Source: a virus (taxonomy: Duplodnaviria > Caudoviricetes). From it: a stretch of 64,000 nucleotides of DNA. The stretch is taken from the IMG/VR virus record IMGVR_UViG_3300022555_000031, positions 1-64,000 of that record; one strand, written 5' to 3'. The translations under genes and the position numbers were made by a program. Numbering within the stretch: the stretch's first letter is position 1; every line of letters begins with the position of its first letter. This document shows, in pieces, positions 33,126-62,275 of the stretch. Below the pieces are notes generated by a model. The model was given only the letters and a program-made list of their open reading frames with translations. It was not told the origin of the DNA and did no database searches.

Positions 33126-34833
33126 GCAACTCCCACCTTTAACCGAGGAAGAGATTAAGGGGGCCAAGGAGATGGCTGAGGCCATCTTTACGCCGTCTGA
33201 CGGGAGGACTCCAGAGGAGTGGATGGAGGACCTGTTCACTCCAGTTAAGGAGCAGAAGATAGAGGCGACGCCAGATGAACTTGGGGCTGAAGTATTGGCC
33301 ACAGTCAGCCCAGAGACATTCTCCAAGTATTACTTTAATCAGACATTGTTTGGCAACCAGGTGGATATGGTGAAGGCCATTCTGGACCCAGTTATAAGGA
33401 AAGTCGAGATAGTGGAGCCGAGGCAGGTGGGAAAAACGTCGGCGATTGCCACGGCATCTGGCATAGCGTTGGAGCAGTTGGGCACAGAGTATAATGAGGT
33501 CAGTCCGAACGAACCATATAGAGTTGGTATCTTCTCTCCTAAGTTGGGGCAGGCTCAGATAGATGTTAATAGGTTGAAGAGATATTGCGAGCGGAATAAG
33601 AAGGCGTATCGCTTTGTCAATTGGAACGAAAGTAATTCCACCAAGTTGGTGTGGCATAATGGCTCAGAGCTTCATGCGGTATCGGCGAGTGAGCAGGCGG
33701 AAACAGAAGGTCAAACGTTCAATCTAATCATAATGGAAGAAGCCCAGAGGATATCCGATTACTCTGTCTCGGAAAAGATACTCCCTATGGGTGGAGCGAC
33801 TGGTTCAAAGATAGTCAAAGTCGGGACCGTGCGTGCGGTGCGTAATCATTTCTGGAAGTCATGGCACGACCCGCAACAAGGATATCATAAAGTTTCACAT
33901 ACCTGGATGACCTGTCCCAATCTCCTACGTGGAGGATGGTTAACAGCCAATATAAATGGGGACCAATTGAAGTTGTCCAGGTATGTGATGGATAGGATGC
34001 CGTTGTCAATCAAACAGCAACTCTATCCATCCAACCCAGAGTTATGGACGCATGGGGATATGGATGAAGCCGACTTCAGGACGCAGTATTTATTGGAGTG
34101 GCTGGAGACGCATGGCCTATATCTTACGGAGCGAGAGAGAGAGCTACTGATAGGGACCCATGAATTACAGACTGGGCACGTGGGCCAGGAGTATCTTGTG
34201 GCGGGGATAGACTTCGCTGGTTCGGATAGCGATAACGCCGATGAGACTTCTATATCAGTATTGAGGGTCACCAACGCAAAAGTTAAAGAGAAGATATGGG
34301 GGTGCACGTTTAGGGGTGACCCGATGTCCCAGTTGCAGGAGATAGTAAACATCCTGCATCCTTATGTGGGGAAGTTCAGGCCGAGGAAGATTCTTGCCGA
34401 CGCCACTGGGATTGGATTATATCCCGTAGCCCAACTGAGGGCATCTGGCCTGCCAGTAGATGGGATTAACTTTGGGGCCACGGAGCCCGACAGTGCGTTA
34501 TCTGGATTAAGCATGAACTATAAGAATGCCATGTGTTCGTATACGAAGTCCGAGATAGATAATGGGAGATTTAAGTATGCAAAGAAACAGCAGTATATTA
34601 TCCCAGAGATGAATGTCAACTACCACAAAGGATTGGACCAGTGGTTCGACCTGGAAGTAGAGAACACGGATAGAATCAACAAGCAGATAGGGCATGCCGA
34701 CGGAGCCTATGACGACGTAGTGATGTCGGATGTGCTGGCAGTATTCGCAAGCAAGACCGAGAGGACCATCCTCCCGCAGAGGAATCAAATGAATTCAATC
34801 AGGGTGGCATTTGCACACCCAGGGATACGATAA
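33112..34833 (+). CDS. terL: terminase large subunit
   Basis: Walker A PRQVGKTS, Walker B LIIMEEAQ, nuclease acidic motifs AGIDFAG, DATGIG and DDVVMSD. Confidence 0.92.
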   Translation: MMENEQLPPLTEEEIKGAKEMAEAIFTPSDGRTPEEWMEDLFTPVKEQKIEATPDELGAEVLATVSPETFSKYYFNQTLFGNQVDMVKAILDPVIRKVEIVEPRQVGKTSAIATASGIALEQLGTEYNEVSPNEPYRVGIFSPKLGQAQIDVNRLKRYCERNKKAYRFVNWNESNSTKLVWHNGSELHAVSASEQAETEGQTFNLIIMEEAQRISDYSVSEKILPMGGATGSKIVKVGTVRAVRNHFWKSWHDPQQGYHKVSHTWMTCPNLLRGGWLTANINGDQLKLSRYVMDRMPLSIKQQLYPSNPELWTHGDMDEADFRTQYLLEWLETHGLYLTERERELLIGTHELQTGHVGQEYLVAGIDFAGSDSDNADETSISVLRVTNAKVKEKIWGCTFRGDPMSQLQEIVNILHPYVGKFRPRKILADATGIGLYPVAQLRASGLPVDGINFGATEPDSALSGLSMNYKNAMCSYTKSEIDNGRFKYAKKQQYIIPEMNVNYHKGLDQWFDLEVENTDRINKQIGHADGAYDDVVMSDVLAVFASKTERTILPQRNQMNSIRVAFAHPGIR

Positions 34834-37800
34834 TGAATAACGTTATGACAACAGCTAAGCTATATAAGTTCTTCGCCAACAACGATGACCTCAGTGTTTT
34901 CACTAACACTGCACTGTGGGGTGGCCCAAAATTTGTTAAAATGGGTAAGTTGCCAGAAGATGATTTACACCCAGGCAGGCCCCTGTATATAATGGCTAAC
35001 TACAATGTAAGCTTTGAGCATGAAGGTTTCGAATTGCTTCCAGAAGAAGAGCGGGAGAACATTCTTGACAACGCCGTGATAGAGAAGGTGCTATCGTTGC
35101 CGAGTAAATGGGATGCTATCTGGGTGTATCATCATGATACGTTTGAGTGTATTTATAAGGAGCCACAGAACATCTTGTTAAGGGAAGGTATGAATAAAAG
35201 GGCAGATGGCGAGCCAGCTATCTTGCGTGGCGGTATGCTGTCAGTAGAAACTTTAGCCTATAAATTCTTCGATAGTGAGGAAGAGGCAAAGGAGTGGGCA
35301 TGGGGAGGTCGGGCAAATGTTCGTCCAAATAATACATATGAGGGTGTTGGTACGGGATGGACAGCGGTTCGGGGTTATGACTGGAGGGTCTTTGTTCCCG
35401 AGGGATGGGTTACCCCAGGGATAGTGGGCGATGAGCTACATCCGACCAACGTGCAATTACTGTGCGAAGAAGTGCGTAAGGGATTCAGTGATGCTCCCGA
35501 GGAAGCGTTGTGGGACGAGGTGAGCGTTAGGTCAGGCGTTCCATCTGGCAATGGTAAGTCTTGGATAACGGTTCCAATGGAACCACGGAACATATTACTC
35601 CGAGAGGGCTCATTTGAAACAGACGCAGTAGTAGAGATAAGGGAGATAGAGAAGGAAGGGGCACGGGGTATATCAGTGGAAGGCGAAGAGAGTAATGAGA
35701 ATGGAAGCTACCGCCTCATCAAGATGATTTATCCGACGTCTATCCAGAGGTATACGAAGGGTCAGTTCAGGTGGTGTGTCTGTAGTCCAGAAACGGCAGA
35801 GAGAATGGGGATATCCAAGGAGAAGCCGTTCTATGTGATAGAGAAGAACGGTCAACCATATGTTGCGTGGATAGATGGGGATGAGTATGTGTTTTCTGGA
35901 TATAGTGGTCGCATCCCCATGACCCTAAGACAGTATAATGAGCTGAGGGAGCTGAAGACCTTTACCGTCCCAGAGATTGTTTTTACTGAAGAAGAGAAGG
36001 CTCGGGGGGCTATATCTTGCCACGATTTTACACAGAAGGACTACACTTGGGAGGAAGAACGTGATGAGAACAATGCCAAGGTTGACGCCAAGTGGGATGA
36101 TGCCGATAGGGAGTTTATGACCCGTCAATGGAACCGCTACTGGGAGAGGCCCAAGGAGAATTACGCTCAAGCACAAGGTATAGAGAAGGAAGCCCTGGGC
36201 GGAGTAGAAATGCACCCCTACTGGATAAGCAAGAACAACGAGTTGATTGATGTGAAGGAGTGTGGCGGGCATGGGTTCGTGTGGGAGGTTTCGGAAGAGG
36301 CTAAGGAAACCACAAGGGAACATGTCGGCCCCCTTGGGGACGGTGTCGACATAGATGCAATCAGGGATACACTATTGATGCGGGGATGGGTTAGGATGGA
36401 GACGGTGTGGAAGTCTCTTATGTTGCAGGCAGAAACTGTCGAGAGCTTATACGATACCTACCCAGTGTGGAGGGAGTTTATTAAAGGTGACACAAGGTTC
36501 TTAATAGAGATTAACGAGCCCCATAAGAGCTACGACCCCGTGAACCAGTATGAGTTAGAGGGGCACGGTATGAACATTTTTGACTATATAGGGAATGGTG
36601 GCGAGTTGGTGGATAACGAGACCAAGACGGCGAGTGGCGGTTACTCAGTAAAAGATATAGTGAAGGTGATGAAGGCAAGAGGAGAGAATTGTAGGGACCA
36701 GTGGGAAGAGTGGTATGGGTCAAGGGACGGCGGGAGCTGGATAATCGCTCCCAACGGAGATTGGTTCCCAGTGTCTCAGCATCAGGATTTCGAGGATGAG
36801 ATGCGTGAGGAGTTTGGTATTAAGTGGACCGACGAAGATGAGGAGTGGATACGTGTAGCAGGTGGCCCGAAGGTAATAGCCTTCGGAGTACCGTTTGGGC
36901 CAAACAACCTGGAGAGGATAGAGAGGTTTATATCAGAGGTTTCACTCAGTGGGAATACTTTAGTTACAGACGGCAAGAGAGAGACGACAATAGAAGATGT
37001 CATAGAAGATGGCTTAGTGAGTGCGTTGATGGGAAGAAGGTCAGCGAGCATAGGGAAGAAGGCCAGAGGAGAGGACGAGAAACTTGAGAGATACGTAGAG
37101 ATGCTTGGCAAGTTCCTGGTGGAGGATTTGGATATCCGCAGGCTGGAAGATTGGGAAGATAGCGTGCGTAGTTGGTGTCAAGGCAGATATCTGCAGAACG
37201 CAGATTTTGATGTAGAAGAGTATCTGCCACAGGAAGACTTAATATTGTGGCGGATATATTATTATCTCGTAAATGGCGACACGGTTATCGCTGACTGGCA
37301 TGACGTTTATACCAAGAGAGCTATCACAGAGGCCCTTTGGCCGTATCTTGTGCCTGGAGTGCCAGACAGGAAAAACATATTCTTTGACAGTGATGGGAAT
37401 TTGTCTACTGAGAATATTCAGATGTCGAAGCTTGAAGCCTACACGGATGAGCTTCAAATGGATGCCGAGCAATCAGCGTTGGACTACGGGTTCAATATCA
37501 ACGACTACCTGGACCAATTTTTCAGTGTCAGTGAAGACGAGGGTGCGTTAGAGAAGCATGAGTTCGCCAGATATCTTCTTGGCAAAGACAGTTACAATCC
37601 CTATGAGGATTTACCTGAAGAGAAGGAGCTGACCAAGAAGTTCTTCCAGGAGTTCAGTCGTGGTGGGATGAATATACTGGAGAGGGAAGGTAGGGTTAAG
37701 ACTGCGATGAAATGGAACGGAGAATGGGAGCCTGTGGAGTGGGAACCCTTGGACGGGATGAATGAAGCTGTTAGGTTCCGTATTGCCGAGTCGGTGAGAG

Positions 37801-38564
37801 CAGGAGAGCTTGCTGGCCATATAAAGTATTACCGTGATGAAAACACCTTGGAGTATGTTGAATGGTCGCTCAATCGGGCCCTCAATAATAGATACCAAGC
37901 CTTTACGGAAATCAGGGATGGTAAGAATAGTGGCGAGGGTTGGGAATTGGAGTGGATAGCCTCTTTGGGAAGAAGGGAGTCAACAAATATCCTCCTGAGA
38001 GAAGGAAGTATTAACAAGGTTGCAGGGATGGAGCAGGCTGATGCACTCGTGAAAGGTGTGACACGGGGTGGACATCGTATGCTGATTCGCAAGGATGATG
38101 ATGATGATAACATAGAGATAGGCATTAGCTATGACCTGTGGGAAGAGGTTAAGAGGGATTACCTTGACGACAATATTAACATGACACAGATGTTTAACAA
38201 GTGGGTTCCTCGGCTTTGCGGTGTCGGGTTAACAATCCCAAGGGAAGATTTATATGGTGTCCGTATCATGACAACATACTTTGTTGATTTTTCCAATGAC
38301 CATATCATGGAAATTAACATGTCGGTGGATGGGGCTAATGTACCCAGGGCCTGTTACGATGTGCCAAGCTTCAGGGAGGGCCTCGACTTCACTGACATAT
38401 TAGACGCCACGGGCTCAGAGAGTATCGAGGCTTGGTTGAAGGGTAAAGTAGAGCCGTTGAACATATTGTTAAGAGAGGGTTCTTTTGAACGAGATGCCAT
38501 AGTAGAGATTAGGGAGGTGTCGGATGAGAGTGGAACGAACGGTTTGGCAGTGGTTAATCAGTAA
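34833..38564 (+). CDS. large acidic modular protein with 5 NILLREG-type tags (probable virion cargo/polyvalent protein)
   Basis: Tags at codons starting 35169, 35589, 37671, 37986, 38460; two P.G..H..GWVR modules; one KW/DY module. Confidence 0.85.
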   Translation: MNNVMTTAKLYKFFANNDDLSVFTNTALWGGPKFVKMGKLPEDDLHPGRPLYIMANYNVSFEHEGFELLPEEERENILDNAVIEKVLSLPSKWDAIWVYHHDTFECIYKEPQNILLREGMNKRADGEPAILRGGMLSVETLAYKFFDSEEEAKEWAWGGRANVRPNNTYEGVGTGWTAVRGYDWRVFVPEGWVTPGIVGDELHPTNVQLLCEEVRKGFSDAPEEALWDEVSVRSGVPSGNGKSWITVPMEPRNILLREGSFETDAVVEIREIEKEGARGISVEGEESNENGSYRLIKMIYPTSIQRYTKGQFRWCVCSPETAERMGISKEKPFYVIEKNGQPYVAWIDGDEYVFSGYSGRIPMTLRQYNELRELKTFTVPEIVFTEEEKARGAISCHDFTQKDYTWEEERDENNAKVDAKWDDADREFMTRQWNRYWERPKENYAQAQGIEKEALGGVEMHPYWISKNNELIDVKECGGHGFVWEVSEEAKETTREHVGPLGDGVDIDAIRDTLLMRGWVRMETVWKSLMLQAETVESLYDTYPVWREFIKGDTRFLIEINEPHKSYDPVNQYELEGHGMNIFDYIGNGGELVDNETKTASGGYSVKDIVKVMKARGENCRDQWEEWYGSRDGGSWIIAPNGDWFPVSQHQDFEDEMREEFGIKWTDEDEEWIRVAGGPKVIAFGVPFGPNNLERIERFISEVSLSGNTLVTDGKRETTIEDVIEDGLVSALMGRRSASIGKKARGEDEKLERYVEMLGKFLVEDLDIRRLEDWEDSVRSWCQGRYLQNADFDVEEYLPQEDLILWRIYYYLVNGDTVIADWHDVYTKRAITEALWPYLVPGVPDRKNIFFDSDGNLSTENIQMSKLEAYTDELQMDAEQSALDYGFNINDYLDQFFSVSEDEGALEKHEFARYLLGKDSYNPYEDLPEEKELTKKFFQEFSRGGMNILEREGRVKTAMKWNGEWEPVEWEPLDGMNEAVRFRIAESVRAGELAGHIKYYRDENTLEYVEWSLNRALNNRYQAFTEIRDGKNSGEGWELEWIASLGRRESTNILLREGSINKVAGMEQADALVKGVTRGGHRMLIRKDDDDDNIEIGISYDLWEEVKRDYLDDNINMTQMFNKWVPRLCGVGLTIPREDLYGVRIMTTYFVDFSNDHIMEINMSVDGANVPRACYDVPSFREGLDFTDILDATGSESIEAWLKGKVEPLNILLREGSFERDAIVEIREVSDESGTNGLAVVNQ

Positions 38565-39123: not shown

Positions 39124-39368
39124 GGATGAGGCCGTCTATGGATAGTGGGTCAGTAGAGACCCGCAAGGCAGAAGCCCGTAAGATGATTTACGATGTCCTC
39201 GACCAGGATAGACAGGTATTTATTGGCGAGGTATTCGTTAACACAGGCATCACACCGCAGGAAATCAGCGAGAAGTTCATTATCAACGAGACAAGAATGA
39301 TAACGGATGCCGACAAAGACGGGTACGGTTACAACGTAGAAGCCCGTGTCAGGCTGGTGAGGAAATGA
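39120..39368 (+). CDS. hypothetical protein (start revised)
   Basis: ATGA coupling at both ends. Confidence 0.6.
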   Translation: MRMRPSMDSGSVETRKAEARKMIYDVLDQDRQVFIGEVFVNTGITPQEISEKFIINETRMITDADKDGYGYNVEARVRLVRK

Positions 39369-42300
39369 CGGAACAAGAGATAAATAAAATATGGGAGTTG
39401 GCCAGGAGCGTTAATCACAGCTTCCAGGTGAACCTGAGCTTTGAACGTGATGGTTCAGATGAAAAACAAATCAACATCTCTGCTGATATGGCGGAAGAAC
39501 TGCGTAAAGACCTTCTATCTGGGGATTCCAAGGAAGAGGTCTACGGGAGATGGTATAACAGAATTCCCACCAGCAGGGCTCTCCCGAGTAGCGGAGTTGT
39601 CTTTTTCAGTCTGCACGAATACTACCACATCAATCCGTCTGCTGGCATATACGAGAACGTGAACTACTGCCTATGCACGGGATATACACGGGAAATCCCA
39701 GGGCGTCTTGTGGATGTTGGCCCATGGATGTTCAGCACGTCACCCAGCAGATTCAGAAACTTACTTACGCAGTATGAAAGAGAGTATGGGAGGGATAAGT
39801 TGATAGATTTGTTAAACAGGCTCGCCTCGCAGAACATTCTGTTGCGTGAAGGTAGTCGAAAGGGTGCGGAGAAGCTTATTGAGAAGGTAAAGTGCGAGCA
39901 CCAGTTGACAGTCACAGACGCCACCAATGATGATTCATGGGCCTGCGTGATTGATAGTAGCCTGTTCAAGTTAAAGGAAATTGAGGCCGACTTTGCGAAT
40001 GGTGACCTCGGTGCCGACGGGATGGTGCAGAAGTGGTGGGATTTGCTTGGGGGAAGTGACGAGCCTACAGACGTTGAGAGTATTGAAATTATCAAGGTAT
40101 ACGATGTGACGCTTAAAGACGGAGACCTGATTCAGATGTTTTTTAGTTTCAATGGGGAATATTATGAGTGGGTGGATATGGATACGTCGGGTTGTGGTGA
40201 AGACAGCGATGGAGAAATATTTCAAGACGAAATAGATAGGATGAGCGATATGGCAAGGATACAGATGCTGGACAGTTTCCTTGAAGGAGAGAACATCTTG
40301 CTACGGGAAGGTAGCCGAAAGGGTGCGGAGAAATTGATAGCATGTGCAGAGCGTAGCCACCAACTCTTCATGGAGAGTGAGGAGTATGGTAAAGAGTGTT
40401 GGGAGGTGGGCAACGACTTAATAGGCGACGTAGAGGCCGATTTTAATAATTTAGATATAGACGGTGATACGTTTGTGTTGAAATGGCGTGGCCAGCTTGG
40501 CGGGGATGGGGTGAGGCTTAATACCGACACGGTTAAACTGTTCAGGAAATATAACGTGACATTCCAGGATGGGGGCTCGTGTTGGATTACTTTCGTACGT
40601 AAGCTAAACAGGCCTGAATACGGGGGACCCATTACAGACGCAGTTTACGGTGGTGGCGATGTGGCAAAATTTGAGAGGCACATACAGAGCATGTCGGACT
40701 CTGAGATAATAAATATGTTGGATGATTTCCTTGAAGGCGAGAACATCTTATTAAGAGAGGGAAGTCTCAAGGGTGCTGATAAGTTGATTGACCGTGTAAC
40801 CCGCAAGCACTACTTGGACCTGGAGGGCGGTTTTGGTGCAGATTCTTATGACATAGAGATTGGTAGCGGGTCGTATCTTGAGGTTGTTGCTGATTATCTC
40901 AATGACAACGTTACCGTGGGAGACCTGATAGGTAAGTGGTGGGGCCCGTTGACTGATAAACCAAAGCCCGAAACACTTCACCTGGTCGGCAGTATCGGCG
41001 TGCAGAAGGTGTTGGATATCCGTGTCAAGGATGGGGGGTTGGTAAGGGTTACCTTGGAGTTAAACAAAGTAAGTCAATGCTATGAGCTTCTCCGTGTAGA
41101 CGAGATGGTGCAGAGTTTGGACTCGAATAGTTTGCTGGACGAGATGGAGGAGGTACCCAATAGTGAGTGGCTTTTCTTGTTGGTCCCAAAGATTGAAGGA
41201 GAGAATATCTTGCTCCGTGAGGGCATGAACAAGAGAGCACAACTGGATAGTTCCCATATTATGGACGTTAAGCGGAATAATCGGATAGAGGTTATGGTGG
41301 GCGACGGCGAAGATAGGGGCGATTACACTGAGTGTAGCGATGATGAGTTCAAGGAGTTGCTTGCTGACGTTTCTAATAATTCTATAACCAACGAGGACTT
41401 TTTGCGGAAATGGTGCCCGAGTGTCCCAGGGGAAGAGGCGTATGATTTGAATATGGCTATCTACTCGGAGTATTGCATCACATTTGCAGATGGCGGAGAG
41501 ATAGAGTTCTCGCTGAGGTATATGGGGCTACAGGACACGAATCTGTGGAGACTACATAACCCAGAGGTCCATGTTGCGTCGGACCAGTCCAGTGCGTTCA
41601 TGGATTACCTGACGAGGCCAGATATGGGGGCGGTAACTTATTCGAGGATGATACCAAATGAAGATGTGGAACAGTTGAACAACCTTTGCGGTGGGACGAA
41701 CATATTACTGAGGGAGGGCACTCTGAAGAAGGCCGATAGCGTGGCGTCAATGAAACGGATGGACGAGTTGACCAGGTCTGTGACTTGCGAGAGAACGTTT
41801 GAGGTGTTGGCCCTGAACGCTGATAATCCCTCTCGTGAAGGTAGCTTGGACAAAAAGGCCATGAACACACTCCAGGATATGGAAGGGGTTGTGGCGTGGG
41901 TATCGCACAAGAATATCCTTTACTTACTTCCTCTGAACGGGGACTTTGGCATAGAAGTTGAGATACCAGACAGCCTGATACCAGACATTCTGATAGATTT
42001 TTCGAATGGCAACCTCAGTCAACAAGGGATAGCAAGGACATGGTGGCCCGACTTATCTGGTGGGGAGCAGGTGCCAGAGAATGAAGGTTGCAGACTCATC
42101 TCTCAGTATGCAGTGGAGATGAGCGATGGTGGTGCGTGCACGGTGGAGTATGTATCCGCCCCAGGCTTGGATGGGCATAGTGTGCATAGGATTACAAAAG
42201 AATCTAATGACGCTAATGTGTTCTATGATTTAATTTTTAATTATAAAGACAGAGAAGTTTACGAGTGGCTGATTGATAGGGTAAGTGGGAAGAACATTTT

Positions 42301-47481: not shown

Positions 47482-47766
47482 GTGGCCATATGTGAACACT
47501 GCGGGAAAGACATCTCCACTTTGAACAATGTTCAGAGTGGCTATGTGATATACGAGATGGATGCCAACGGCTCATATTCTCAAGTTGACGGCTTCGAACC
47601 AGACGGTAACATGAATGAGTGGCACTGTCCTAACTGTAGCTCCAACATTGCGTTGTGCGAAGAAGATGCGATGGAATTTTTAAGTAGAGGAGTCCCAGGG
47701 GACAACATTCTCACCCGAGAAGGTAAAACCAGGCGAGTAGCCTTCAAACGCAATCATACGTCTTAA
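47482..47766 (+). CDS. small Zn-ribbon protein with C-terminal NILTREG tag
   Basis: CEHCG...CPNC; tag at 47704; GTG start after GGAGG. Confidence 0.75.
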   Translation: MAICEHCGKDISTLNNVQSGYVIYEMDANGSYSQVDGFEPDGNMNEWHCPNCSSNIALCEEDAMEFLSRGVPGDNILTREGKTRRVAFKRNHTS

Positions 47767-47778: not shown

Positions 47779-48759
47779 ATGGCATTCACTCAAGACACTA
47801 CGAAATTAGGTGACAGGCCAGTTACGCTTGTCGCACAGCTTTATGACTCCGTTACACAAACCCACAAAGTAGTCCCGCTCAGATGCAAAGACAATGGAGA
47901 CGGGTCATGGTCGATGGATATTCAGGCGACCATAGAGACTGGCGATATAGAAATCGGAGCGGTTGAATTAAAGGACGCAGGCTCAGATACGAGAGTGAAA
48001 GTAAAAACCGATGGGACAGATAACGCCCTCGTGGTGATGCAGAATAACGGAGCAAAAGAAACTGGCGGTAACCTCGCAAGTATAAAAACAGATGTAGACA
48101 AAATCCCATCAAAGGGCACAGCGACGATGGTCGGCTCGATGCCCGTTACGATAGCTACTGATGACACACTCATGTCGGCAATGAAGGCCGACTTAGATAA
48201 GATACCTTCCTCGCCCGCAACTGAAGGCGGCAACCTGGCGACCATAGCAGGAAAAGATTTTGCAACACAAACGACCCTGTCTGCGTTGAACGCAAAAATC
48301 CCAGCGAGCCCAGCAACTGAAGGCGGTAATCTCGCAACGATTAAATCCAACACAGACAAACTTGACACGACTTTGTCAGCATTGGCAACGGCTATAGCAG
48401 GAGCGACTCCGAAGACACTTGCAGATGTAGTATCGGCAATCTCGGGGATTAGTGTTGGAGGAAATAAGATTACTCCAATAATTTCTGTAGTGGATATGAC
48501 GACACTTGGAACAGAATATTCACAAGCACTACCTGAAGGATGTAGTGGATTTACAGTTCAGTTGAGGGAAGATAGTGGTATTCTTAAGATAGCTTTTAAT
48601 ACAGGAGATATAGCGGCGGGCACTTATATTACTGTTAAGGCTGGAGGCTCTTGGTCAGAAGATGGAGTGAATTTGACGGGAAAGACTTTGTATCTTGTCA
48701 GTGATACAAATGCTGTCAATGCAGAAATTATTGCGTGGGCACCAGGAGGGTTAGCATAA
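47779..48759 (+). CDS. probable virion structural protein with internal GGNLA repeats
   Basis: [12 protein letters not shown] x2 and ETGGNLASI; Ala/Thr-rich; beta-rich C-terminal domain. Confidence 0.65.
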
Positions 48760-51830: not shown

Positions 51831-51947
51831 ATGATTAAAGGCGGAAAGCATAGCGAGGAGACTAAGAGGAAAATGAGTGAGGCTCGCTCTGGTGAGCGTA
51901 ATGCTTTTTATGGAAAACGACATACAAGTGTCTTGGTCGGGAAGTGA
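51831..51947 (+). CDS. stand-alone NUMOD3 mini-protein (38 aa), homing-endonuclease remnant
   Basis: KHSEETKRKMSEARSGERNAFYGKRH = NUMOD3 consensus; TAAATG junction. Confidence 0.7.
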   Translation: MIKGGKHSEETKRKMSEARSGERNAFYGKRHTSVLVGK

Positions 51948-51948
51948 G

Positions 51949-54900
51949 ATGCCCACTAAAACGATACAGATAACACTGCTTGACAGTCTTGGGCCCACGA
52001 GGCAATCATCTTTTTGGTACGACGGGATAGTGGCGATTAGCACCAATTGCAAGGTGGTGGCTGAAGGGGAGCTGAGGGTGGTCTTTAAACCAGACAAGGC
52101 CTACATTGGTGTGTCTGCGGTGGAAAAGGCAATGGACTTGGGGTTGGACGACGACACTCTGCCGAATGCAATTGGGGCATTTGTATACAGCAATTGGTAC
52201 GAGGTTCAACCTGTCACAAATATAGCGAGAGATATTGTGCCCACGGAGTTGGACAATATTGTTGAGGGTGACGACATTGAGAGCATAAAGGAAGCGTTGA
52301 TTTTTTGGGAGAACGAGATTGCGGACCAAGAGGGGTATACTCCCGAGTTTGTTTTCAGGGGGTTTCAGGATGACAGAAATATTCTTTTAAGAGAAGGGGG
52401 AGCGACAATGCCCAGAATAGCCAAAGAGGGAATGGTTAGCCGAGTTGACCAGCGGTTCGACCGTGAGGCCGAGCTTATTGCACAAGGGACCACTATCACT
52501 ATCCAGGCTGATGGTGAACCAAAGATGCTCTCCGTCTCTCAGCGTAAAACCGACAATGGGTTTGAATATGAGGCTCATGACGTTTTAACCAACGAAAAGA
52601 TTAAGGTGGCGAGTGTAGAGCAGGTTAAGACGCTTTACGCTTTGCAATCTTTAATCGAGCAGTGTTTTGGTTTAGGGAAAGAAAGTGCTAAGGTAGCGGA
52701 CCTTGCACAGCAGGCCCTTCTCAACCTATACGGCCTGCCTGAGTTCAAGGAAAAGTATAAACCCCTGCAGGCTGATAAGGTTGCCGAGACTGGATACGCC
52801 CACAACATCCTCTCACAGGTTTATTCCGATGCAGAGCTGGAGAAGATAATTGCATTAAGACACAACGTGGACAAGGACCTGGCACTGCTTAAAGAGATAG
52901 CGTTGTACCTGAGGAAAGAGGTTTACGCCCAGGTCGCTTATATGGCCACGAAGATGACCCAGCAACTTCACGACAGTGGTGTTGATGTGGATGAGGCCTG
53001 TAAGACGGTGATGGATGTGTATGGGGCCTTTGATAAGATGCTGGATGGCGATAACCCTATCGGGAATAAGCGGGTTGGTATCATAGAGTTTGGGGTCAGA
53101 CATTATTACGTTTCAGTGGATAGGAAAGCTGAATACGACGGCATCATAAAAAACCTGGAAGACAGTGCTCAGTTGGTAATACGGCTTGTTGAATCTGGCC
53201 TGGCGTATGATGAGATAGTCACTGAGCTGGAGAAGGCGAATGACGGGAAACCGCTACCGTCAAGTTCCCGTGCGATAGCGTTGCTGAACAACATTTTCCC
53301 TGAGAAAAAGTGGAGTCAGATGTTCAGGGGTGGTTTAGCGAACTACCAGTTTATTCGGACTGGGGAATCCATCGGGAGCATTTCCGAGGGAGACAAGATA
53401 GTTATCAAACATAAAGACCTTGACGTAATGAAAGGGGTCGTTAAGTGGATAGACGAAGAAGCAAATGTCGTCCGAGTTGAGACGGAATTCGTAGGAGCGG
53501 AAGACCGTGGCACCATGATGCACGACTTCAATTACTACGAGTTTATGAAGAAGGTAGACGAGAAAGAGATAGTGAAGACTGCCTGGGGCGAGGGGAAGCA
53601 TTATAAACTAACTTTGTCCCCAGTTGTTCCTGAAGGTTACGGTGATTTATTTGCCACCCAGGAGCAGAACGAAGAGCATTTTAGGTATACCACGATGCGG
53701 AGATACCTGGACGTAAATGACCTTGGGAGTGGCCCGAACTATGTTTATTTCTCAGAGAAGATACTCCCGAAGATAATGAGGGTACTTGAAAGGGATGTGG
53801 CAAAGGGCAATGTCGATTCAGACTCAGTCCTGCTTGAGCAAGTGGTTGGTGGTGGCAGTGAAGTCGCCGAGTCGTGGCATGGATGGGATGAAATCAAAGG
53901 CATGGGGAAGATTGCGATGATGAAAGAAGCAGACCTCCGCATGGCGTATTTTGTAAACCATATACCAGTTGGGGGGAAGTATCCCATCTGTGCGTGCATG
54001 GAGAACAGGCGTGGATACACTCAGCACATGACGAATTCTTACGATACACTTGAAGAGGCAGAAGCGGAAGCCGATAGGCTTAATGAGGAGATGGGGATAT
54101 CCAAGAAGGACTCCATGACAATCGTGTTGCGTTCGATGGGGGCTGGGAATAGGCCCATTATAGATAAACCCGAAGCGAAATATACTGTAATAATCGATGA
54201 CACTGGTTTAAGGGATTCCGAGATGGAGATGCTTCACGAGTTCATAGGCGGACAATTCGGTGAAACTCCATACGGGACTATCGAGGGGCAGGTGTTTGAG
54301 GGTAAACTTGAGAGCTTAATTATGGCCCTTGAGAAGCTCGTGAAGGCCAAGAAGATTGGCAAGGATGTTATTCTTAATAGCGAGGAAGGCGAGTGGAAGG
54401 GTTTGCGTGAGATAAAGAAACGGTTCAAGGTCCAGACTACTCTCGAAAGAGAGGGGGCAGTGGGGTTGGGTAATGTGAGATTTATTATTGATTGGTGGGG
54501 CGACGACGAGGATAATGATATTGATTTAGCGGACTTGATAGACATGCTTGACAATGCCGAGGTTGAATATCCAGATGAAGAAGATATTGGGGAGTGTATG
54601 GTTGTTAGAGGTGAAATCATACCAGACGGGTCCAAGATTGGCGAGTTGCTCCACAAATTAGGTCTGTATGAGGTAAGCGGGAAGGTCCAAAACGATGGCG
54701 TGACTGCAAAGTATAATGGAATGGGATACAATGGCCTGAGGACCATCAGGGAAGCTTACAAGAGTGGCAACCTTGAACCTCAGAACATTTTGGAGCGGGA
54801 AGGCAAGGTGGTAAGAACTGCATCCAGGCCAATTAAAAGGGACTGGGCGGTTAGCATGGTAAGGGGCAGGGACCTTGTGGGTGTATATTTCGCCGATACT

Positions 54901-57108
54901 GATGGGTGTGATACGTTGGTTGAATGCCACCCTAATCTGGCGGACAAGATAATTGAAAGATGGAATAACGGGGATTATGATGAGGCGGACGCCAAGACCA
55001 TATTGCAACAGTGGGTGTCCAAGAAAGTTGTCAATCCGCTTAATAGGATTGGTGGCAAGATTCAAGTAATGGTAAGGAAGGCTGGCTGGGTAACTGGCGA
55101 GCCTGCAGAGGTTGTCGTAGAGACTGCCTTCGCACTCTGGCTTGAGTCAGACGAAATCCGAGACATCGTTGCCGATATCGTTAAGATTAACCCTGGATTA
55201 AAAGAACAAGAGAGCAGGGATGACCTTGAACGCCAGGTGTTCGACCGCATAGAAAATATGCTCCACGAGGAAGCCAGTAAGAAGCTGAGTGGAGTAAGGG
55301 AGATAGGGACCGACTACGATTTCGATATCAACAAACAGGAAGTAGGATACATTATAAACGAGGTAGTTAACACTCCGCCAGAAGGTGAAGAGCCGAAGAC
55401 AGTAGTTGAAGCCAGTGGCAAGAGGTCGTGTAAGTATTACGAGACCTGCGGTAGCCCAGCGAACTGCCAGGCGTGTAAGGGTGGGTATGTGAAGAAAGAA
55501 AAGAGGGCGGAGTTTGGTGCTTATTATTCCGTTTGGGATAACCAATGTAACACTTGGCTGGCAACTGGCAGTAATAGTGATACTCGTGAAGAGGCGATAC
55601 GTGATGCTTTTGAGTATATAGTCAGTGGCAGTGATGACTATAATGAGGCTGATTATGCGGGTTTTACATTGGAGGACATGGAAAACGAATTGAGTGCCTA
55701 TGAATACGAGGTAAAACGGCACGTCGGACGGATAAAGGATAATGCGTTGGGGCTTGCGGGAGAGGAGGAGTTTGGTGGTAGGGCGACAAAAGAAGTCCAA
55801 TTGGATGCCGAGAATATTCTGCTGAGGGAATCATCTTTAAGCAAAGAATCCAGGAGCAATTACGATGTTATAGAGGCGTTCATTGCCAACAACTTTCCAG
55901 AAAAAGACGGGTGGGGAACGAGACATTTGTATGTTATGCAAGAGAGGGGTGGTTGGGCGTTGGTCAACAACTATTCAACCCCGATAGTTTTTAGGAGGGA
56001 TTCTGACGGTAGGATGTTTTTTAATACTGATAAATATTCTGTAACTACGAGCAAAATACAAACTTTTATCCGCAGGGAGTTGGAGCAGGCAGGGGCTACT
56101 GCGGATTTGGTTGACGAGGAAGGCATTAAGATGGCAATAAGTGGTGAGATAGACCCCGCCAATATTCTACTGAGGGAAGGCGGGGGGAATAGGCATATTG
56201 GCTGTGACTGTATAGCGTGCAGGCTTGGGTTGAATGCTAAAGCTAAAACGGCTGGAGAGAAAGAGGAAGCGATTACAACTACACTTGACCAGCTTGGCCC
56301 TGGTGATAAGTTTGCGTTTGTAACGGAGCCAGAGAAAGTATTTGTCTTGATAAGCAAGGACGACACGGTTGGATATTTGGTGCAAAGAGAAGGTGGCACC
56401 AAGAGAATACCGCTTGACCCTGGGGTTGGGAAGAAGCAGGTATTTTGGTGGGGTGGGAAGGATGAAAGTGCTTCCCCAATGGCCGAGGGTGGAATGGGCG
56501 AAGGCGAAGCCCAGCAGGCGGAGAATGTCCAGGAGTCTGCTCCTGAGCCAGAGAAGGAAGAGGCCAAGAAGCCAGAGGCAGTTACAACCATACTAAAGAA
56601 ACTTAATAACGGCGACAGATTTGCGTTCGTCAAAGACCCTAAAAAGATTTTTGTCTTTATGTCTGGCGAGGAAGGTGTTGGATGGATAGTGAATAGTGGT
56701 GGGCCCAACACCCTTCTTAAATCTGAAGTCGGAGATGAGCAGGTGTTTTTGTGGACTGGCGAGGAAACAGCTCCCAGTGGTGGGGCCAAGCAAGAACAGC
56801 CAACCCAAAAGAAAGAAGAGCCAGTTGAAGAAGAGGGATGGCAGACCGTTGGAGACATGGAGATAGGGGATAGTTTTATTGAACAGGGTGGTAAAACCAG
56901 GATGACGATGATAGGTATTTACCCCCAGTATGATTTTTATTTCTGGGTAGATGCAGATAACCAACCGCATGTGAGCGAGATTCCAAGGGTGAAAGACATA
57001 AAAGTTAAAAAGATAGGGGCTTATAAGGTTGAGCGGGCGAAGGAGCTCGCTAAGATTCACAAGGACTATTTACAGGCATTGGTCCAAGAGAAGTTGGGCA
57101 GACAATAA
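51949..57108 (+). CDS. large modular protein with 4 NILLRE(G/S) tags + 1 degenerate (start revised from 51877)
   Basis: Tags at 52378, 54784, 55813, 56161 (TTLEREG at 54436); three C-terminal GD.F beta-barrel-like repeats. Confidence 0.85.
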   Translation: MPTKTIQITLLDSLGPTRQSSFWYDGIVAISTNCKVVAEGELRVVFKPDKAYIGVSAVEKAMDLGLDDDTLPNAIGAFVYSNWYEVQPVTNIARDIVPTELDNIVEGDDIESIKEALIFWENEIADQEGYTPEFVFRGFQDDRNILLREGGATMPRIAKEGMVSRVDQRFDREAELIAQGTTITIQADGEPKMLSVSQRKTDNGFEYEAHDVLTNEKIKVASVEQVKTLYALQSLIEQCFGLGKESAKVADLAQQALLNLYGLPEFKEKYKPLQADKVAETGYAHNILSQVYSDAELEKIIALRHNVDKDLALLKEIALYLRKEVYAQVAYMATKMTQQLHDSGVDVDEACKTVMDVYGAFDKMLDGDNPIGNKRVGIIEFGVRHYYVSVDRKAEYDGIIKNLEDSAQLVIRLVESGLAYDEIVTELEKANDGKPLPSSSRAIALLNNIFPEKKWSQMFRGGLANYQFIRTGESIGSISEGDKIVIKHKDLDVMKGVVKWIDEEANVVRVETEFVGAEDRGTMMHDFNYYEFMKKVDEKEIVKTAWGEGKHYKLTLSPVVPEGYGDLFATQEQNEEHFRYTTMRRYLDVNDLGSGPNYVYFSEKILPKIMRVLERDVAKGNVDSDSVLLEQVVGGGSEVAESWHGWDEIKGMGKIAMMKEADLRMAYFVNHIPVGGKYPICACMENRRGYTQHMTNSYDTLEEAEAEADRLNEEMGISKKDSMTIVLRSMGAGNRPIIDKPEAKYTVIIDDTGLRDSEMEMLHEFIGGQFGETPYGTIEGQVFEGKLESLIMALEKLVKAKKIGKDVILNSEEGEWKGLREIKKRFKVQTTLEREGAVGLGNVRFIIDWWGDDEDNDIDLADLIDMLDNAEVEYPDEEDIGECMVVRGEIIPDGSKIGELLHKLGLYEVSGKVQNDGVTAKYNGMGYNGLRTIREAYKSGNLEPQNILEREGKVVRTASRPIKRDWAVSMVRGRDLVGVYFADTDGCDTLVECHPNLADKIIERWNNGDYDEADAKTILQQWVSKKVVNPLNRIGGKIQVMVRKAGWVTGEPAEVVVETAFALWLESDEIRDIVADIVKINPGLKEQESRDDLERQVFDRIENMLHEEASKKLSGVREIGTDYDFDINKQEVGYIINEVVNTPPEGEEPKTVVEASGKRSCKYYETCGSPANCQACKGGYVKKEKRAEFGAYYSVWDNQCNTWLATGSNSDTREEAIRDAFEYIVSGSDDYNEADYAGFTLEDMENELSAYEYEVKRHVGRIKDNALGLAGEEEFGGRATKEVQLDAENILLRESSLSKESRSNYDVIEAFIANNFPEKDGWGTRHLYVMQERGGWALVNNYSTPIVFRRDSDGRMFFNTDKYSVTTSKIQTFIRRELEQAGATADLVDEEGIKMAISGEIDPANILLREGGGNRHIGCDCIACRLGLNAKAKTAGEKEEAITTTLDQLGPGDKFAFVTEPEKVFVLISKDDTVGYLVQREGGTKRIPLDPGVGKKQVFWWGGKDESASPMAEGGMGEGEAQQAENVQESAPEPEKEEAKKPEAVTTILKKLNNGDRFAFVKDPKKIFVFMSGEEGVGWIVNSGGPNTLLKSEVGDEQVFLWTGEETAPSGGAKQEQPTQKKEEPVEEEGWQTVGDMEIGDSFIEQGGKTRMTMIGIYPQYDFYFWVDADNQPHVSEIPRVKDIKVKKIGAYKVERAKELAKIHKDYLQALVQEKLGRQ

Positions 57109-58184: not shown

Positions 58185-58201
58185 CATACTACAGGAGACG
58201 A

Positions 58202-61200
58202 ATGTCTATACTGCTGAACTTACATACAGCCGAGGAGCAACTTAAACTTTTTGACGACTCACCTGGTAAAGGGGAAGTTAAAAAGGAAGAGAAGCCCCAG
58301 GGTCGAGTAGGCTTTAGAGCAGACTGGCAGAGTATTTGGGACGAGCAGGACGACGCAATGTATTCCGAATACTTCGACTGGCATTCAACCTTACCAGCTT
58401 GGCTCTCCAAGCAGTGGATAAGGCGTTTTGTTATTAAGGAAGACGGAGAGCAGTATCCTATACAGATGCTTGAACGTATGAGCGATAAACAGTTGAGCGG
58501 TATGTTCAAACGTTACTATGGGGATGCGTTGAAGGGTCAGGTCCATACGGCAAAGAGAGAAGACAGTCTCGAGCCGACTCTTGGCGGGGACCTGGGGTCT
58601 GAGCAGGGTATTCCGCTTGTTAATTTTCATTCAGAGGAGGATGCGGAGAGGTTCTTAAATGCGACCAAGGGGCTCAAGTTAAACTTTCATTGGGAAAGAC
58701 AGGGCCAGGTTGTTGTATTAAACGACCCAAGGTTTGGAAGCACAGAGGTTAAGTCTTATGTAAAAGGATTCATAGACCCCAACGAAGAAACTTCATACCT
58801 TGCTGGCCAGGATATGCAGATGATGGCTGAAGCTGTGGGGAAAGTAGAGAAGACGGCCAATCAAAAAATGACCAGTAGCAGTGCCTTTATTATGCCCAAT
58901 GGAAGATTACAGCCAGTGTGGTCGCATGAAGGTTGGCTTGCTGAGCAACACAGAGAGTTAACCGAGATGCTGGACGCTGGATGGATACGGATATCCACGA
59001 TGTCTCCACAGGAAGTTGGCTTGGAGTTCAGCGTATTAGATGATGATTCTGCTGAAAGAATAGAGAAGTTCTTGAAGGTAAATTCATTCACTGTCGTAAC
59101 AGTAGATTGCATGGACGGTGTCAAGCAGTTAAAGATAAAAGATATTCTTCGGGACGGGTTCTGGACTGCCTTCAGGAAGGCTGAAGAGGGCTTTTCGTAT
59201 ACAGACGAGTCCCTTCGCTATAAGCCTTACCAGCCCCAAGAGGGTGTCGGCACGGACAGAATCCTTCCCCCGTTTGCCAGTAGACATACAAATATGACCA
59301 AGACTGCCCTGTTTGCGGGGAGTGGAGTAATCGACCCCAAGGGAAATTTCAAGACCGTTTTCACTCATGACAACTTCGCAGAAGAAATGGGCATGACTCC
59401 GCAGGAAGTTCTGAAGGCGGGATACGTTAGAATATCTGTTTACTCACTGAGACTTGTGGGCGTACAGTTCTGGGAAGAGACGCCAGAGATTTTGATGCGG
59501 ATAGACAACTTCCTTGTGGAGAATCCGTATCGGAAGGTGAGGGTGGAGGTCGCAAGTAAGGAAAATACTTACAAGGAACTTTCTATTGAAGACATCCTGG
59601 ACTTTGGCTTCGAAGGGGCCCTGCACGGGAAGGCTAAGGACAGGGAGTGGCTACCAGGTGCACGGAAAGAAACATTAACGAAGAAAGCTGACGGTATATT
59701 TGAATATGACCAGAACGCTATGGATGCGATGTCGGACGGCTCAAGGGGTCAGCAGACAAGAAGCATAGAGTATCTGCCACAGGACCAGAAGCAGTGGTGG
59801 CTGGAATACCTGGAGAAGGGCAAGAAGAACTTCCCAGGGAAAAAAGATACGGTCCCGCCAGAGAGTGAAGAGGGTGGCGTATCGGTGGCGGGTAAGAACG
59901 CCAAAGTAAAGACCGCAGGGATAAACTTCGTGGGCAACTATGTGTTTTATCCTGACGGCAGGTTTGAGTTTTATAAGGCACAAATAGATGAGCATGTAAC
60001 CTATCCAGAGAACTGGCTCGAGTGGGACGATAGAACGTTTGGCCAAATGATGAGGGATGGTGCAACTATAGGGACCTTGTGGGCCCGTATCGATTACGGG
60101 TGGGATAAAGAAAAGGACATCGACCTTGGTATCATCACCTATGACCTTGAGGTGAGGAACCATCGTGGAGATTTATCCGATGAGCAGGTTAAGAAAATCA
60201 TGGACGCCTTTGGTATAACGGCCAGACCAAGGACAAGAGACAGGGGTGGCGAAGAGATAGTAATGCCCAAGGACGAAGCAATAAACTTTATCAACGGCAG
60301 AATCAACATCCTTCTGCGTGAGGGAGCAAAGAAACCTAAAGGCCAGAGGGATGATGTTGGGGCGGAAGAGCAAATATTAGAATACATAGAAAACGCATCC
60401 CGCTTTGCGGACCAGGGTAATGCTGGTATGTTTGCGGGAGCACTCTATCAATTGATGGGTGGTGGCAAAATTTATGTCATTATGGATGAAGCTGGTGACG
60501 TTTATAATGTGGCATTCTTCTATGAGGATAAGTTTTACGACATGATGGGTATTGTGACCAAGGAAGAGCTACTGGACTCGTTCCAATATAATGGAGATGT
60601 TGATGAGAACGGCGTGGGCGTTAAGATGGATTTGGTGGAATGTAATTGGATGGATGCGGAATACGCCATGCCGTATGCTTCAGCGTATATGGACGAGATA
60701 ATCTCGGCCATGATGGGGCAGGAGAGTGTCGCAGAAGAGGACGACTGGCGGAAGTCTTATAATAAATACATGGGGGAATACAATAAGTGGCAAGGCGAGT
60801 ATCCCGAATACTCGTCAAAAGATTGGGCGAATTATAAGTATGAACCGCCTAAAGACGAGGAGATTACCCTGGAGTCTTTGTATCCAGATATCATGCAAGA
60901 CCTGGCTCCGATATTCCAGCAATACGGAGTTGGCCAGGATATTTTGAACGGGTTAAAAGTCATCAAGACCCATGTATATGCTCCGTTCTACGCTATCATG
61001 GAGAAGCAGACGATAACTTTGTATTCGCTGTTTTTCGGGCTCCAGGAGCCAATCCGTAAGGCGAAACTGCTTCACGAGATTGCCCATTATATCCAGGAGA
61101 AGACTGGGACTGATTGGGGCACAGAGGAAGAGATTAAACAGGCGATTCAATTGGAGACCGACTACAAGGAACGCAAGATAACACCCAAGGAATTCTTTGA

Positions 61201-62275
61201 GATATACCTTGCGTATCCGCATGAGCTGAAGGCCTATAAAGTCGAAGTTGACTATCTACGCAGTCAGGGCATGGCTGATGCACAAATAAAGGAACAGCTG
61301 ATGGCTGACCTTACGGCGGACAGTGAAGCTGTTATCGACAGGATTCTCCAGCAGGCCAGCATGTTTGGGTTCACCAAGAAAGCCAAGAGGCAGATATACA
61401 ATGGGATAACGTGGGAAGAAGAGTATACCCCGCTGTTGCCGAAGAAGAGAAACTTCTATAGATGGGTTGGACATATGGGGGATGGGTTTACTCATAGATA
61501 TGTGATTCTGAGGGCGGATGTTCCGACCCTGGAGAATGTGGCCAGGGTGGTTGCTCAAAAGGTGGATTCGGATTCTTGTCCGTCTGCGAAATATTTCCAG
61601 GACCTCCAAGAGGCCATTGATTTTGTTGGTGATAATTTTGGTATAGATGTAAGCAACGTAAGACTGACCCCCGTGTCTGCGGGGATATCTCGTAGGGACA
61701 GGGATATTATCGGGTATAAGTTGGTCAACGATATCTCAAAAGCCCTGGAGGATACGACATCTATTCTCTCCCGTGTGGACATGTTTATCGGTGGCAAGTT
61801 TAACGAAGGAGAGAAAACTCCGACAATCTTCGCCCGCTTCATAGAAAATAGTTGGTCAGAGGATATAGCGTTCCTTAAAGGGTCTCTGGGCGGGGCAGAA
61901 GACATGCACACTTTTATTAAGAATATGTGGCAAAGGTTTATACCTCAGAGTTGGAAGCGTGATAACTATATAGTGAAGAATAAAGTTATCCCGATGGCGA
62001 ATAGATTGCTCGATAGCGGATTGACGGCGAATGAGATTCGTGCCGAGTTGCAACGCATTGCCCCAAACAACTATTTTGTGCGGGCCATGATTGAGCATAT
62101 TATTTACACCGAGATAGACCCAACATTAGAGGGCGACAAAGAGAATAAAGATGTTGATATAGACGCTGAATTATCGGAAGCATTAGAGTATAATACGAAT
62201 GACACGGCCCATTTAATGCCGTTACACGATATGCACATCCCAGGGCACCGTGAAGGAATAATAGGGGAAGATTAA
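58202..62275 (+). CDS. large modular protein: one NILLREG tag, HEXXH metallopeptidase-like domain, inactive papain-like domain, P.G..H..GWIR modules, N-terminal QLKLF
   Basis: Tag at 60305; LLHEIAH at 61073; GNAGMFAGAL at 60416; QLKLF at 58238. Confidence 0.85.
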   Translation: MSILLNLHTAEEQLKLFDDSPGKGEVKKEEKPQGRVGFRADWQSIWDEQDDAMYSEYFDWHSTLPAWLSKQWIRRFVIKEDGEQYPIQMLERMSDKQLSGMFKRYYGDALKGQVHTAKREDSLEPTLGGDLGSEQGIPLVNFHSEEDAERFLNATKGLKLNFHWERQGQVVVLNDPRFGSTEVKSYVKGFIDPNEETSYLAGQDMQMMAEAVGKVEKTANQKMTSSSAFIMPNGRLQPVWSHEGWLAEQHRELTEMLDAGWIRISTMSPQEVGLEFSVLDDDSAERIEKFLKVNSFTVVTVDCMDGVKQLKIKDILRDGFWTAFRKAEEGFSYTDESLRYKPYQPQEGVGTDRILPPFASRHTNMTKTALFAGSGVIDPKGNFKTVFTHDNFAEEMGMTPQEVLKAGYVRISVYSLRLVGVQFWEETPEILMRIDNFLVENPYRKVRVEVASKENTYKELSIEDILDFGFEGALHGKAKDREWLPGARKETLTKKADGIFEYDQNAMDAMSDGSRGQQTRSIEYLPQDQKQWWLEYLEKGKKNFPGKKDTVPPESEEGGVSVAGKNAKVKTAGINFVGNYVFYPDGRFEFYKAQIDEHVTYPENWLEWDDRTFGQMMRDGATIGTLWARIDYGWDKEKDIDLGIITYDLEVRNHRGDLSDEQVKKIMDAFGITARPRTRDRGGEEIVMPKDEAINFINGRINILLREGAKKPKGQRDDVGAEEQILEYIENASRFADQGNAGMFAGALYQLMGGGKIYVIMDEAGDVYNVAFFYEDKFYDMMGIVTKEELLDSFQYNGDVDENGVGVKMDLVECNWMDAEYAMPYASAYMDEIISAMMGQESVAEEDDWRKSYNKYMGEYNKWQGEYPEYSSKDWANYKYEPPKDEEITLESLYPDIMQDLAPIFQQYGVGQDILNGLKVIKTHVYAPFYAIMEKQTITLYSLFFGLQEPIRKAKLLHEIAHYIQEKTGTDWGTEEEIKQAIQLETDYKERKITPKEFFEIYLAYPHELKAYKVEVDYLRSQGMADAQIKEQLMADLTADSEAVIDRILQQASMFGFTKKAKRQIYNGITWEEEYTPLLPKKRNFYRWVGHMGDGFTHRYVILRADVPTLENVARVVAQKVDSDSCPSAKYFQDLQEAIDFVGDNFGIDVSNVRLTPVSAGISRRDRDIIGYKLVNDISKALEDTTSILSRVDMFIGGKFNEGEKTPTIFARFIENSWSEDIAFLKGSLGGAEDMHTFIKNMWQRFIPQSWKRDNYIVKNKVIPMANRLLDSGLTANEIRAELQRIAPNNYFVRAMIEHIIYTEIDPTLEGDKENKDVDIDAELSEALEYNTNDTAHLMPLHDMHIPGHREGIIGED

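Follow-up and report, generated by a model that had tools for sequence, protein, structure and literature searches.

A lake-phage contig of 85.6 kb in IMG/VR (IMGVR_UViG_3300022555_000031) encodes, in its first 64 kb (these 64,000 nucleotides are the window analysed here), giant proteins whose modules are closed by a heptapeptide tag, NILLREG. The tag is real, is selected at the level of the peptide, lies outside the fold, is carried by many unrelated segments and occurs within the morphogenesis block of the genome. We tentatively read it as a specific proteolytic processing signal that turns giant polyproteins into small acidic units, an explanation that we rate as somewhat short of probable. 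Large phages commonly encode giant proteins of many modules, and these are thought to be processed into working units, with the signal at the unit boundaries left undefined. Here, module boundaries are legible in the sequence 29 times, and the tag, if it is a cutting signal, offers a direct route to how giant phage proteins are processed. As a candidate maturation or targeting signal of large-phage virion proteins, the motif is unusual in its length, its invariance and its occurrence once per module.

The tags are distributed over six neighbouring plus-strand genes (aa, amino acids):

34833..38564, +, gene A, 1243 aa, orphan, five tags
39365..47416, +, gene B, 2683 aa, orphan, 12 canonical and four degenerate tags
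47482..47766, +, gene S, 94 aa, Cys-rich with CxxC pairs, one tag (NILTREG)
51877..57108, +, gene C, 1743 aa, orphan, four canonical tags (one of them NILLRES) and one degenerate tag (TTLEREG)
58202..62275, +, gene D, 1357 aa, orphan, one tag (residue 702) and an isolated HEIAH motif (residue 958)
62300..64000, +, gene E, 1226 aa, orphan, runs past the window to contig position 65980

The tags inside the window are as follows:

35169..35189, +, NILLREG, A residue 113
35589..35609, +, NILLREG, A residue 253
37671..37691, +, NILEREG, A residue 947
37986..38006, +, NILLREG, A residue 1052
38460..38480, +, NILLREG, A residue 1210, 27 residues before the stop
39833..39853, +, NILLREG, B residue 157
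40292..40312, +, NILLREG, B residue 310
40742..40762, +, NILLREG, B residue 460
41204..41224, +, NILLREG, B residue 614
41699..41719, +, NILLREG, B residue 779
41822..41842, +, degenerate DNPSREG, B residue 820, closes a 41-aa stub segment
42293..42313, +, NILLREG, B residue 977
42764..42784, +, NILLREG, B residue 1134
43265..43285, +, NILEREG, B residue 1301
43793..43813, +, NILLREG, B residue 1477
44246..44266, +, NILLREG, B residue 1628
44831..44851, +, degenerate TTLEREG, B residue 1823
45755..45775, +, NILLREG, B residue 2131
46175..46195, +, degenerate PPLLREG, B residue 2271
46901..46921, +, degenerate PTILREG, B residue 2513
47381..47401, +, NILLREG, B residue 2673, 4 residues before the stop
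47704..47724, +, NILTREG, S residue 75, 13 residues before the end
52378..52398, +, NILLREG, C residue 168
54436..54456, +, degenerate TTLEREG, C residue 854
54784..54804, +, NILEREG, C residue 970
55813..55833, +, NILLRES, C residue 1313
56161..56181, +, NILLREG, C residue 1429
60305..60325, +, NILLREG, D residue 702

The initial annotation of this DNA had counted 23 canonical copies of NIL[L/E/T]RE[G/S] (five in A, 12 in B, one each in S and D, four in C) and the degenerate copies NPSREG, TTLEREG (twice), PPLLREG and PTILREG, all of which we recovered. A sixth degenerate copy is added here: gene E stops exactly at ...FEPNLLPQEG-stop (contig 65957-65977, outside the window), which brings the total to 23 + 6 = 29 tags. 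The composition of the tagged genes predicts 0.001 canonical copies in their 8,346 residues. A back-translated NILLREG pattern matches the plus strand 18 times and neither the minus strand nor a reversed control, and in a six-frame scan NIL.RE is present on the plus strand only. The wider consensus reads [E/G]-[G/P]-x-N-I-L-L-R-E-G-[S/T/A/K]-x-K-x-A, in which the conserved side, N-I-L-x-R-E, is followed by a small residue (Gly 27 times, Ser once).

Every synonymous codon is used at every tag position, and the third-position identity between tags is 0.37. At the DNA level the flanks are about as similar as random sequence (median identity 0.28-0.32) versus 0.67 within the tag, a value close to what one peptide with free codons yields. 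Since the codons are scrambled and the flanks random, selection acts on the peptide and not on the DNA or RNA, as the initial annotation had concluded from freely varying codons. Gene conversion as the source of the tag identity is ruled out by the same random-identity flanks together with the differing tag codons. The giant open reading frames (ORFs) are not assembly artefacts because independent contigs from two studies span genes A and B with 0-2 differences. The phage is present in five freshwater or lake sequencing runs from the two studies, and no RNA run is listed among those that hold it.

In the 2683-aa product of gene B, the tags of the first eleven full modules are spaced 150-176 aa apart, and three proteins stop 4, 13 and 27 residues past their last tag (B, S and A, respectively); both of these features had been noted before, as had the absence of the full tag from the left 34 kb of the window, and our counts agree. 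Outside the six tagged genes, the shorter string LREG occurs three times in 19,117 residues versus 0.4 expected, and all three of these mini-tags lie 12-23 residues before a C-terminus, within the last 26 residues (Poisson P about 2e-5):

17125..17136, +, (F)LLREG, 12 residues before the C-terminus of the 246-aa protein 16435-17175
25159..25170, +, (R)LREG, 23 residues before the C-terminus of the 144-aa protein 24808-25242
33069..33080, +, (S)LREG, 14 residues before the C-terminus of the 597-aa protein 31332-33125, encoded just upstream of the terminase gene

A tag or mini-tag thus stands just before the C-terminus of seven proteins (B, 4 residues; S, 13; A, 27; E, 0; and the three LREG proteins). 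The LREG-ended left-hand proteins may be further substrates of whatever reads the tag.

What the tag closes was examined by iterative profile searches in which the tag had been stripped off the segments. Twelve tag-ended segments form a type-1 family of ~155 aa (B1-5, B7-11, B16 and A5), two make up a second family (B13 and B14), and about 14 (A1-A4, B6, B12, B15, C1-C5, D1 and the 94-aa protein) show no sequence similarity that the searches could detect, either to these families or among themselves, so that the tag is common to about 16 unrelated segment types. As it is found on about 14 dissimilar segments in addition to the 12 type-1 members, the tag is a portable element that does not belong to a fold. 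The description of the tag as a module signature whatever the fold thus holds in that it closes ~14 dissimilar segments, but was overstated, as 12 of the 29 tags belong to one domain family and only the fold of that family could be modelled. Type-1 members have 17-38% identity to the first member in an alignment of 11 (B11, grouped only by a later profile search, was left out), and the invariant columns of these 11 are limited to one Trp, one Leu and N-I-L-(L)-R-E-G.

One type-1 module was modelled with AlphaFold using an alignment of its paralogues:

39854..40312, +, module B2, predicted compact α/β domain (residues 1-145) with a disordered tag (residues 147-153)

The model has a predicted local distance difference test score (pLDDT) of 88.4 and a predicted template modelling score (pTM) of 0.82, and its sole stretch with pLDDT below 50 comprises residues 147-153, which is the tag exactly. 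At the level of a predicted structure, the tag as a flexible tail is demonstrated for the type-1 module only, because the other module types could not be modelled (AlphaFold 2 prediction of gene A residues 1-300 without an alignment gave a useless pLDDT of 36). The type-1 module is predicted to have an α/β fold that is not a β-grasp. Fold searches gave no convincing counterpart in the PDB (Foldseek template modelling score at most 0.25, best VIA Z 4.6), and no ubiquitin-like protein (Ubl) was among the matches. The module units are acidic, with isoelectric points of 4.1-5.6 in all except the 41-aa segment B6 (41720-41842), which lies between a perfect tag and the decayed NPSREG and looks like the stub of a deleted module. 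The earlier proposal that the tag is a portable add-on at module ends is supported by its being the sole low-confidence stretch of a confident model and by weak domain homologues that lack it (P0135 and P0136, below); together with the stripped-tag searches, these results place the motif outside any single repeated fold.

Genes A-D have no credible match in Pfam, PHROG, NCBIfam, PDB sequences or the ESM Atlas, the sole rows being a PHROG family of unknown function (C), sub-threshold Pfam and NCBIfam matches (D) and a PDB-sequence match with an E-value of 0.46 (D). A homologue of gene B of similar length was not found among 5.8 billion proteins. Searched against 1.84 billion representatives, the module profile retrieved fragments of the same phage, a protein designated P0130, and weak matches to P0135 and P0136, distant domain homologues without the tag; the giant repeat proteins within P0125-P0134 were rejected as relatives, being spurious sums of short matches. 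P0130 (185 aa, E-value 4e-6, from a 1.1-kb metagenome contig), a remote homologue that belongs to a different phage, is the only clear relative outside the lineage. It is one free-standing module, preceded by a 25-residue leader that ends in TLLERE-A and followed by TLLEQE-G plus seven residues, which means that even a one-module protein is flanked by tags on both sides. The elements that are constant across lineages are Leu-Leu or Leu-Glu, Arg or Gln, Glu, and a small residue, the Glu being present without exception in the 29 tags and in the two of P0130. A metagenome scan with a two-tag pattern gave no matches, and one with a single extended tag pattern gave 23 single matches (loci L023-L045), none with a module; some of these stray matches arise because the protein-kinase catalytic loop carries xPENILL..G by chance (L041 465-493, ...DIEPENILL...; DIEPENILLREG). 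A literature search on the motif found nothing.

The tagged genes are placed between the large terminase gene and the portal and prohead-protease genes, and thus within the morphogenesis block:

33112..34833, +, large terminase subunit, start of the morphogenesis block, 37% identity to gp1 of the megaphage Bacillus phage G
contig 77862-80048, portal, past the window, 41% identical to phage G gp14
contig 82226-85609+, prohead protease, past the window and truncated where the contig stops, 36-56% identity with phage G gp19

The contig is that of a distant relative of Bacillus phage G. The protease ORF also matches phrog_18299 and jumbo-phage genes annotated as 'prohead core protein protease', and the enzyme is one of the T4-gp21/assemblin-like proteases of the jumbo-phage lineage. 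Translation of gene A is coupled to that of the terminase gene, the ATG of A overlapping the terminase stop codon (TAATG).

According to the proposed mechanism, the tag would act as a short linear signal on the flexible tail behind each folded module. Cuts at the tags would free units of ~12-20 kDa and a few bigger ones (27-81 kDa), besides trimming short C-terminal extensions. The likeliest cut would be NILLRE↓G, with the invariant Glu at P1, a small residue (Gly, Ser or Ala) at P1′ and the invariant Leu at P4. The disorder of the tag in the model and the Gly or Pro found two residues upstream of it in 17 of 29 copies argue for an exposed linker, as protease sites are. The enzyme would most likely be the phage's own T4-gp21/assemblin-like prohead protease, and a cut by it after Glu takes about two thirds of the weight that we give to a processing signal; the tag could additionally dock the substrate on the enzyme. 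The alternative enzyme would be a peptidase embedded in the polyproteins. The zincin-like motif LLHEIAHYI at gene D residue 958 (61073-61087, segment D2) could mark an embedded metallopeptidase, but chance alone would supply about one HExxH in the proteome, and Pfam and PDB sequence searches give HEIAH no support. A zinc peptidase of the phage G gp2 type hidden in gene A was also considered and rejected, there being no similarity.

Of the T4-gp21/assemblin-like prohead proteases, those that have been characterised (T4 gp21, phiKZ gp175 and SPN3US gp245, the last with an AXE motif) cleave on the C-terminal side of Glu. Within a substrate they make several cuts, they trim N-termini as well as C-termini, and packaged ejection proteins are among the proteins that they process (PMC5694885, PMC10052503). 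Again, the tag presents a candidate P1 Glu and a small residue after it, there are several candidate sites per protein with trimming proposed at both termini, and such a protease is encoded on the contig. By analogy, the leader and trailer of P0130 would correspond to a propeptide and a trimmed tail. Considering (i) the Glu-small residue pair, (ii) the layout of P0130, (iii) the exposed linker, and (iv) the position of the genes and the coupling of gene A to the terminase gene, the observations fit a prohead protease. The tagged proteins also resemble polyvalent proteins, which are giant multi-module phage proteins encoded near morphogenesis genes and predicted to be processed into units by a peptidase, with no site motif given (PMC5512222). 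In contrast to that class, the known domains (MuF, ART, zincin MPTase and so on) were not detected in the tagged proteins, and the boundary tag here is explicit and conserved, whereas none is known to have been described for polyvalent proteins (PMC5512222).

Several observations weigh against this reading. Known prohead proteases recognize three-residue motifs, L/I-x-E for T4, S/A/G-x-E for phiKZ gp175 and A-x-E for SPN3US gp245 (PMC5694885, PMC10052503), versus seven near-invariant residues in the tag. The key hydrophobic positions of the tag are P4 and P5 and not P3: whereas P3 is the key Leu/Ile site for T4 gp21, it is the most variable position of the tag (Leu in 20 of 29 copies, otherwise Glu, Thr, Pro or Ser), the invariant hydrophobic position being P4. 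The tag stands at every module boundary of giant polyproteins, unlike prohead-protease sites, and is missing from the portal and from the 1128 visible residues of the protease, which include a scaffold-like tail; the contig does not hold the capsid gene, and the scaffold gene is likewise missing. Characterised relatives of the protease, as a rule, cleave themselves at the consensus. Gene E ends at the tag Gly, so that a cut after Glu would remove one residue, and the three LREG mini-tags are on proteins of a replication or early-looking region. Phage-G-like relatives with the same terminase and protease lineage are without such giant genes: their loci, found with two-sequence alignment, have ordinary genes after the terminase gene and no recurrent motif, and the giant tagged genes are therefore special to this lineage. 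Lastly, cleavage itself, the position of the cut, the enzyme and the location of the proteins in the virion are all things that we infer. The modular cargo system proposed in the initial annotation, in which any domain with the tag would be loaded, processed or ejected, is thus supported only in part, as regards a portable signal at module ends within the morphogenesis block. If the tag is nevertheless a protease site, no site known for a phage maturation protease would come near its seven residues in specificity, the tags would provide a map of the mature products, and the enzyme and its site would possibly be a new specific protease/site pair for use as a tool.

The same portability would also suit an uncut docking or targeting peptide for one receptor (the inner capsid surface, scaffold, portal or protease), which we consider an unlikely explanation of the tag. 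Its counterparts would be the cargo-loading peptides of encapsulins and the T4 capsid-targeting sequence (CTS), and the many copies would give avidity. The tag is flexible and exposed, lies outside the fold on unrelated segments, belongs to genes of the morphogenesis block and tends toward C-termini (0-27 residues from four of them, with one protein ending exactly in the tag), and its seven-residue invariance suits a single binding pocket. A docking tag, however, need not mark every module boundary, nor flank the one-module P0130 twice, and the invariant Glu followed by a small residue resembles a scissile bond. The T4 CTS is N-terminal, single and coupled to cleavage after Glu, and encapsulin cargo-loading peptides are at the extreme C-terminus and uncut. 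Like the tag, both are short conserved peptides found outside the fold and near a terminus of unrelated proteins; unlike them, the tag lies within the protein, is present in up to 16 copies per protein and differs in sequence. Were its role one of loading, the tag would offer a general means of getting proteins packaged in a capsid. The 3C and 3C-like sites of RNA viruses have Gln or Glu followed by Gly, Ser or Ala and a hydrophobic P4. They offer an analogy only for a specific site repeated between folded units, with Glu before Gly, Ser or Ala; the present genome, in contrast, is that of a dsDNA tailed phage, in which a chymotrypsin-like protease was not detected. In our view it is hardly credible that the motif has no signalling role and is either a structural component of a single repeated fold or something that tandem duplication passively left behind. 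It is true that 12 of 29 tags close one repeated domain family and that the neighbouring junctions B1-B3 retain 58-65% DNA identity beyond the tag. But disorder in the model is confined to the tag, the tag has stayed invariant while the domains drifted to 17-38% identity and third codon positions became random, about 14 tag-stripped segments are dissimilar to the repeat, and the weak distant homologues P0135 and P0136 do without it.

A further candidate reader of the tag, overlooked in the initial annotation, is encoded in the same window by four consecutive genes, inserted between sbcD and sbcC, for a Ubl and its enzymes:

3903..7820, +, Ubl/E2/JAB/E1 cassette, candidate alternative tag reader
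3903-4178, +, Ubl, 91 aa, unannotated, strong ribosome-binding site, ends ...SPNVKGG-R
4239-6047, +, E2-like protein, 602 aa, signature NHPHVNREGHCCLGN (motif HPHV...G.CCL)
6060-6683, +, JAMM/JAB protein, 207 aa, intact motif E30, H90-x-H92-x7-S100-x-x-D103
6684-7820, +, ThiF-type E1

Other phage contigs have the cassette too (L012 8509-10666; L015 and L016; and a syntenic relative on 130-kb contigs, with the gene order SbcD-Ubl-E2-JAB-E1-...-SbcC). In one phage contig all four genes are present, with a Ubl ending in VRGG (E2-like protein 30%, JAB 38% and E1 about 52% identical). This syntenic relative was not found in IMG/VR, and a literature search did not find a paper describing such phage Ubl cassettes.

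Were the tag a ubiquitin-like tail, the JAMM protein would cut polyubiquitin-like arrays after the Gly, and E1 and E2 would activate this Gly and ligate it to lysines, a step comparable to the conjugation of CD-NTases in type II CBASS (cyclic oligonucleotide-based antiphage signalling system); we regard this as more doubtful than docking. The complete enzyme set of the conserved cassette encourages the idea, and LLREG resembles both the LRLRGG of ubiquitin and the VKGG or VRGG ends of the phage Ubls. By sequence, the best solved relatives of the E1 are UBA5 and ATG7, whose Ubls (UFM1 and ATG8/ATG12, respectively) end in a single Gly behind a bulky residue. As in polyubiquitin and Ubl precursors and in the CD-NTase conjugation system (Cap2/Cap3), units are arranged head to tail, with a hydrophobic-Leu-Arg-x-Gly tail and short extensions (0-27 residues past the last Gly, one protein ending at the Gly), and E1, E2 and JAB enzymes are encoded in the same genome; invariance over seven residues is typical of a tail that is read by several enzymes. 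Unlike in Ubl precursors, however, the modelled module is not a β-grasp, and the penultimate residue of the tag is Glu where the cassette Ubls have Gly. Furthermore, the last residue of the tag is Ser in one copy and Ala in the relative P0130, the cassette has its own adjacent GG-ended Ubl, as does the homologous cassette elsewhere, and it lies 27 kb from the tagged genes. A complex prediction for the JAB with a module junction (with alignments and Zn) scored 0.00, which is evidence neither way. A shade less likely again is the specific case in which the tag is a portable conjugation handle, with modules ending in ...NILLREG being released by the JAMM protein and ligated through their Gly to virion or host lysines by E1 and E2. 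If read by the Ubl machinery, the tag would represent a new kind of virus assembly chemistry, and the handle, if true, a phage ubiquitin-style 'cut-and-ligate' process acting on non-ubiquitin folds in precursors of thousands of residues. Whatever weight processing, docking, a structural or relic origin and a ubiquitin-like tail leave between them falls to something not yet thought of.

All long ORFs in the window are on the plus strand, and the GC skew is uniformly strong and positive (0.17-0.31) over its whole length. The left 34 kb hold replication and repair genes, namely those for SbcD, SbcC, a RuvC-like protein, a sliding clamp and phosphoesterases. Close relatives by terminase are absent from IMG/VR. 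Among the tagged genes, an untagged one (48735-50246) encodes a collagen-repeat protein that resembles a tail fibre (PHROG tail fibre, 1.5e-27; Pfam Collagen). The stretch from the orphan giant genes to the portal gene also contains a gene (contig 73551-74969) whose 472-aa product has a domain of the minimal CRISPR polymerase type (mCpol, Cas10 palm; Pfam 2e-18). Three consecutive large genes at the end of the contig (77862-85609), those for the portal, a 555-aa protein of unknown function and the prohead protease, are interrupted by inteins, and the one in the protease carries a LAGLIDADG domain and is inserted two residues past the likely catalytic Ser (..DVSMG|A...VHN|C).

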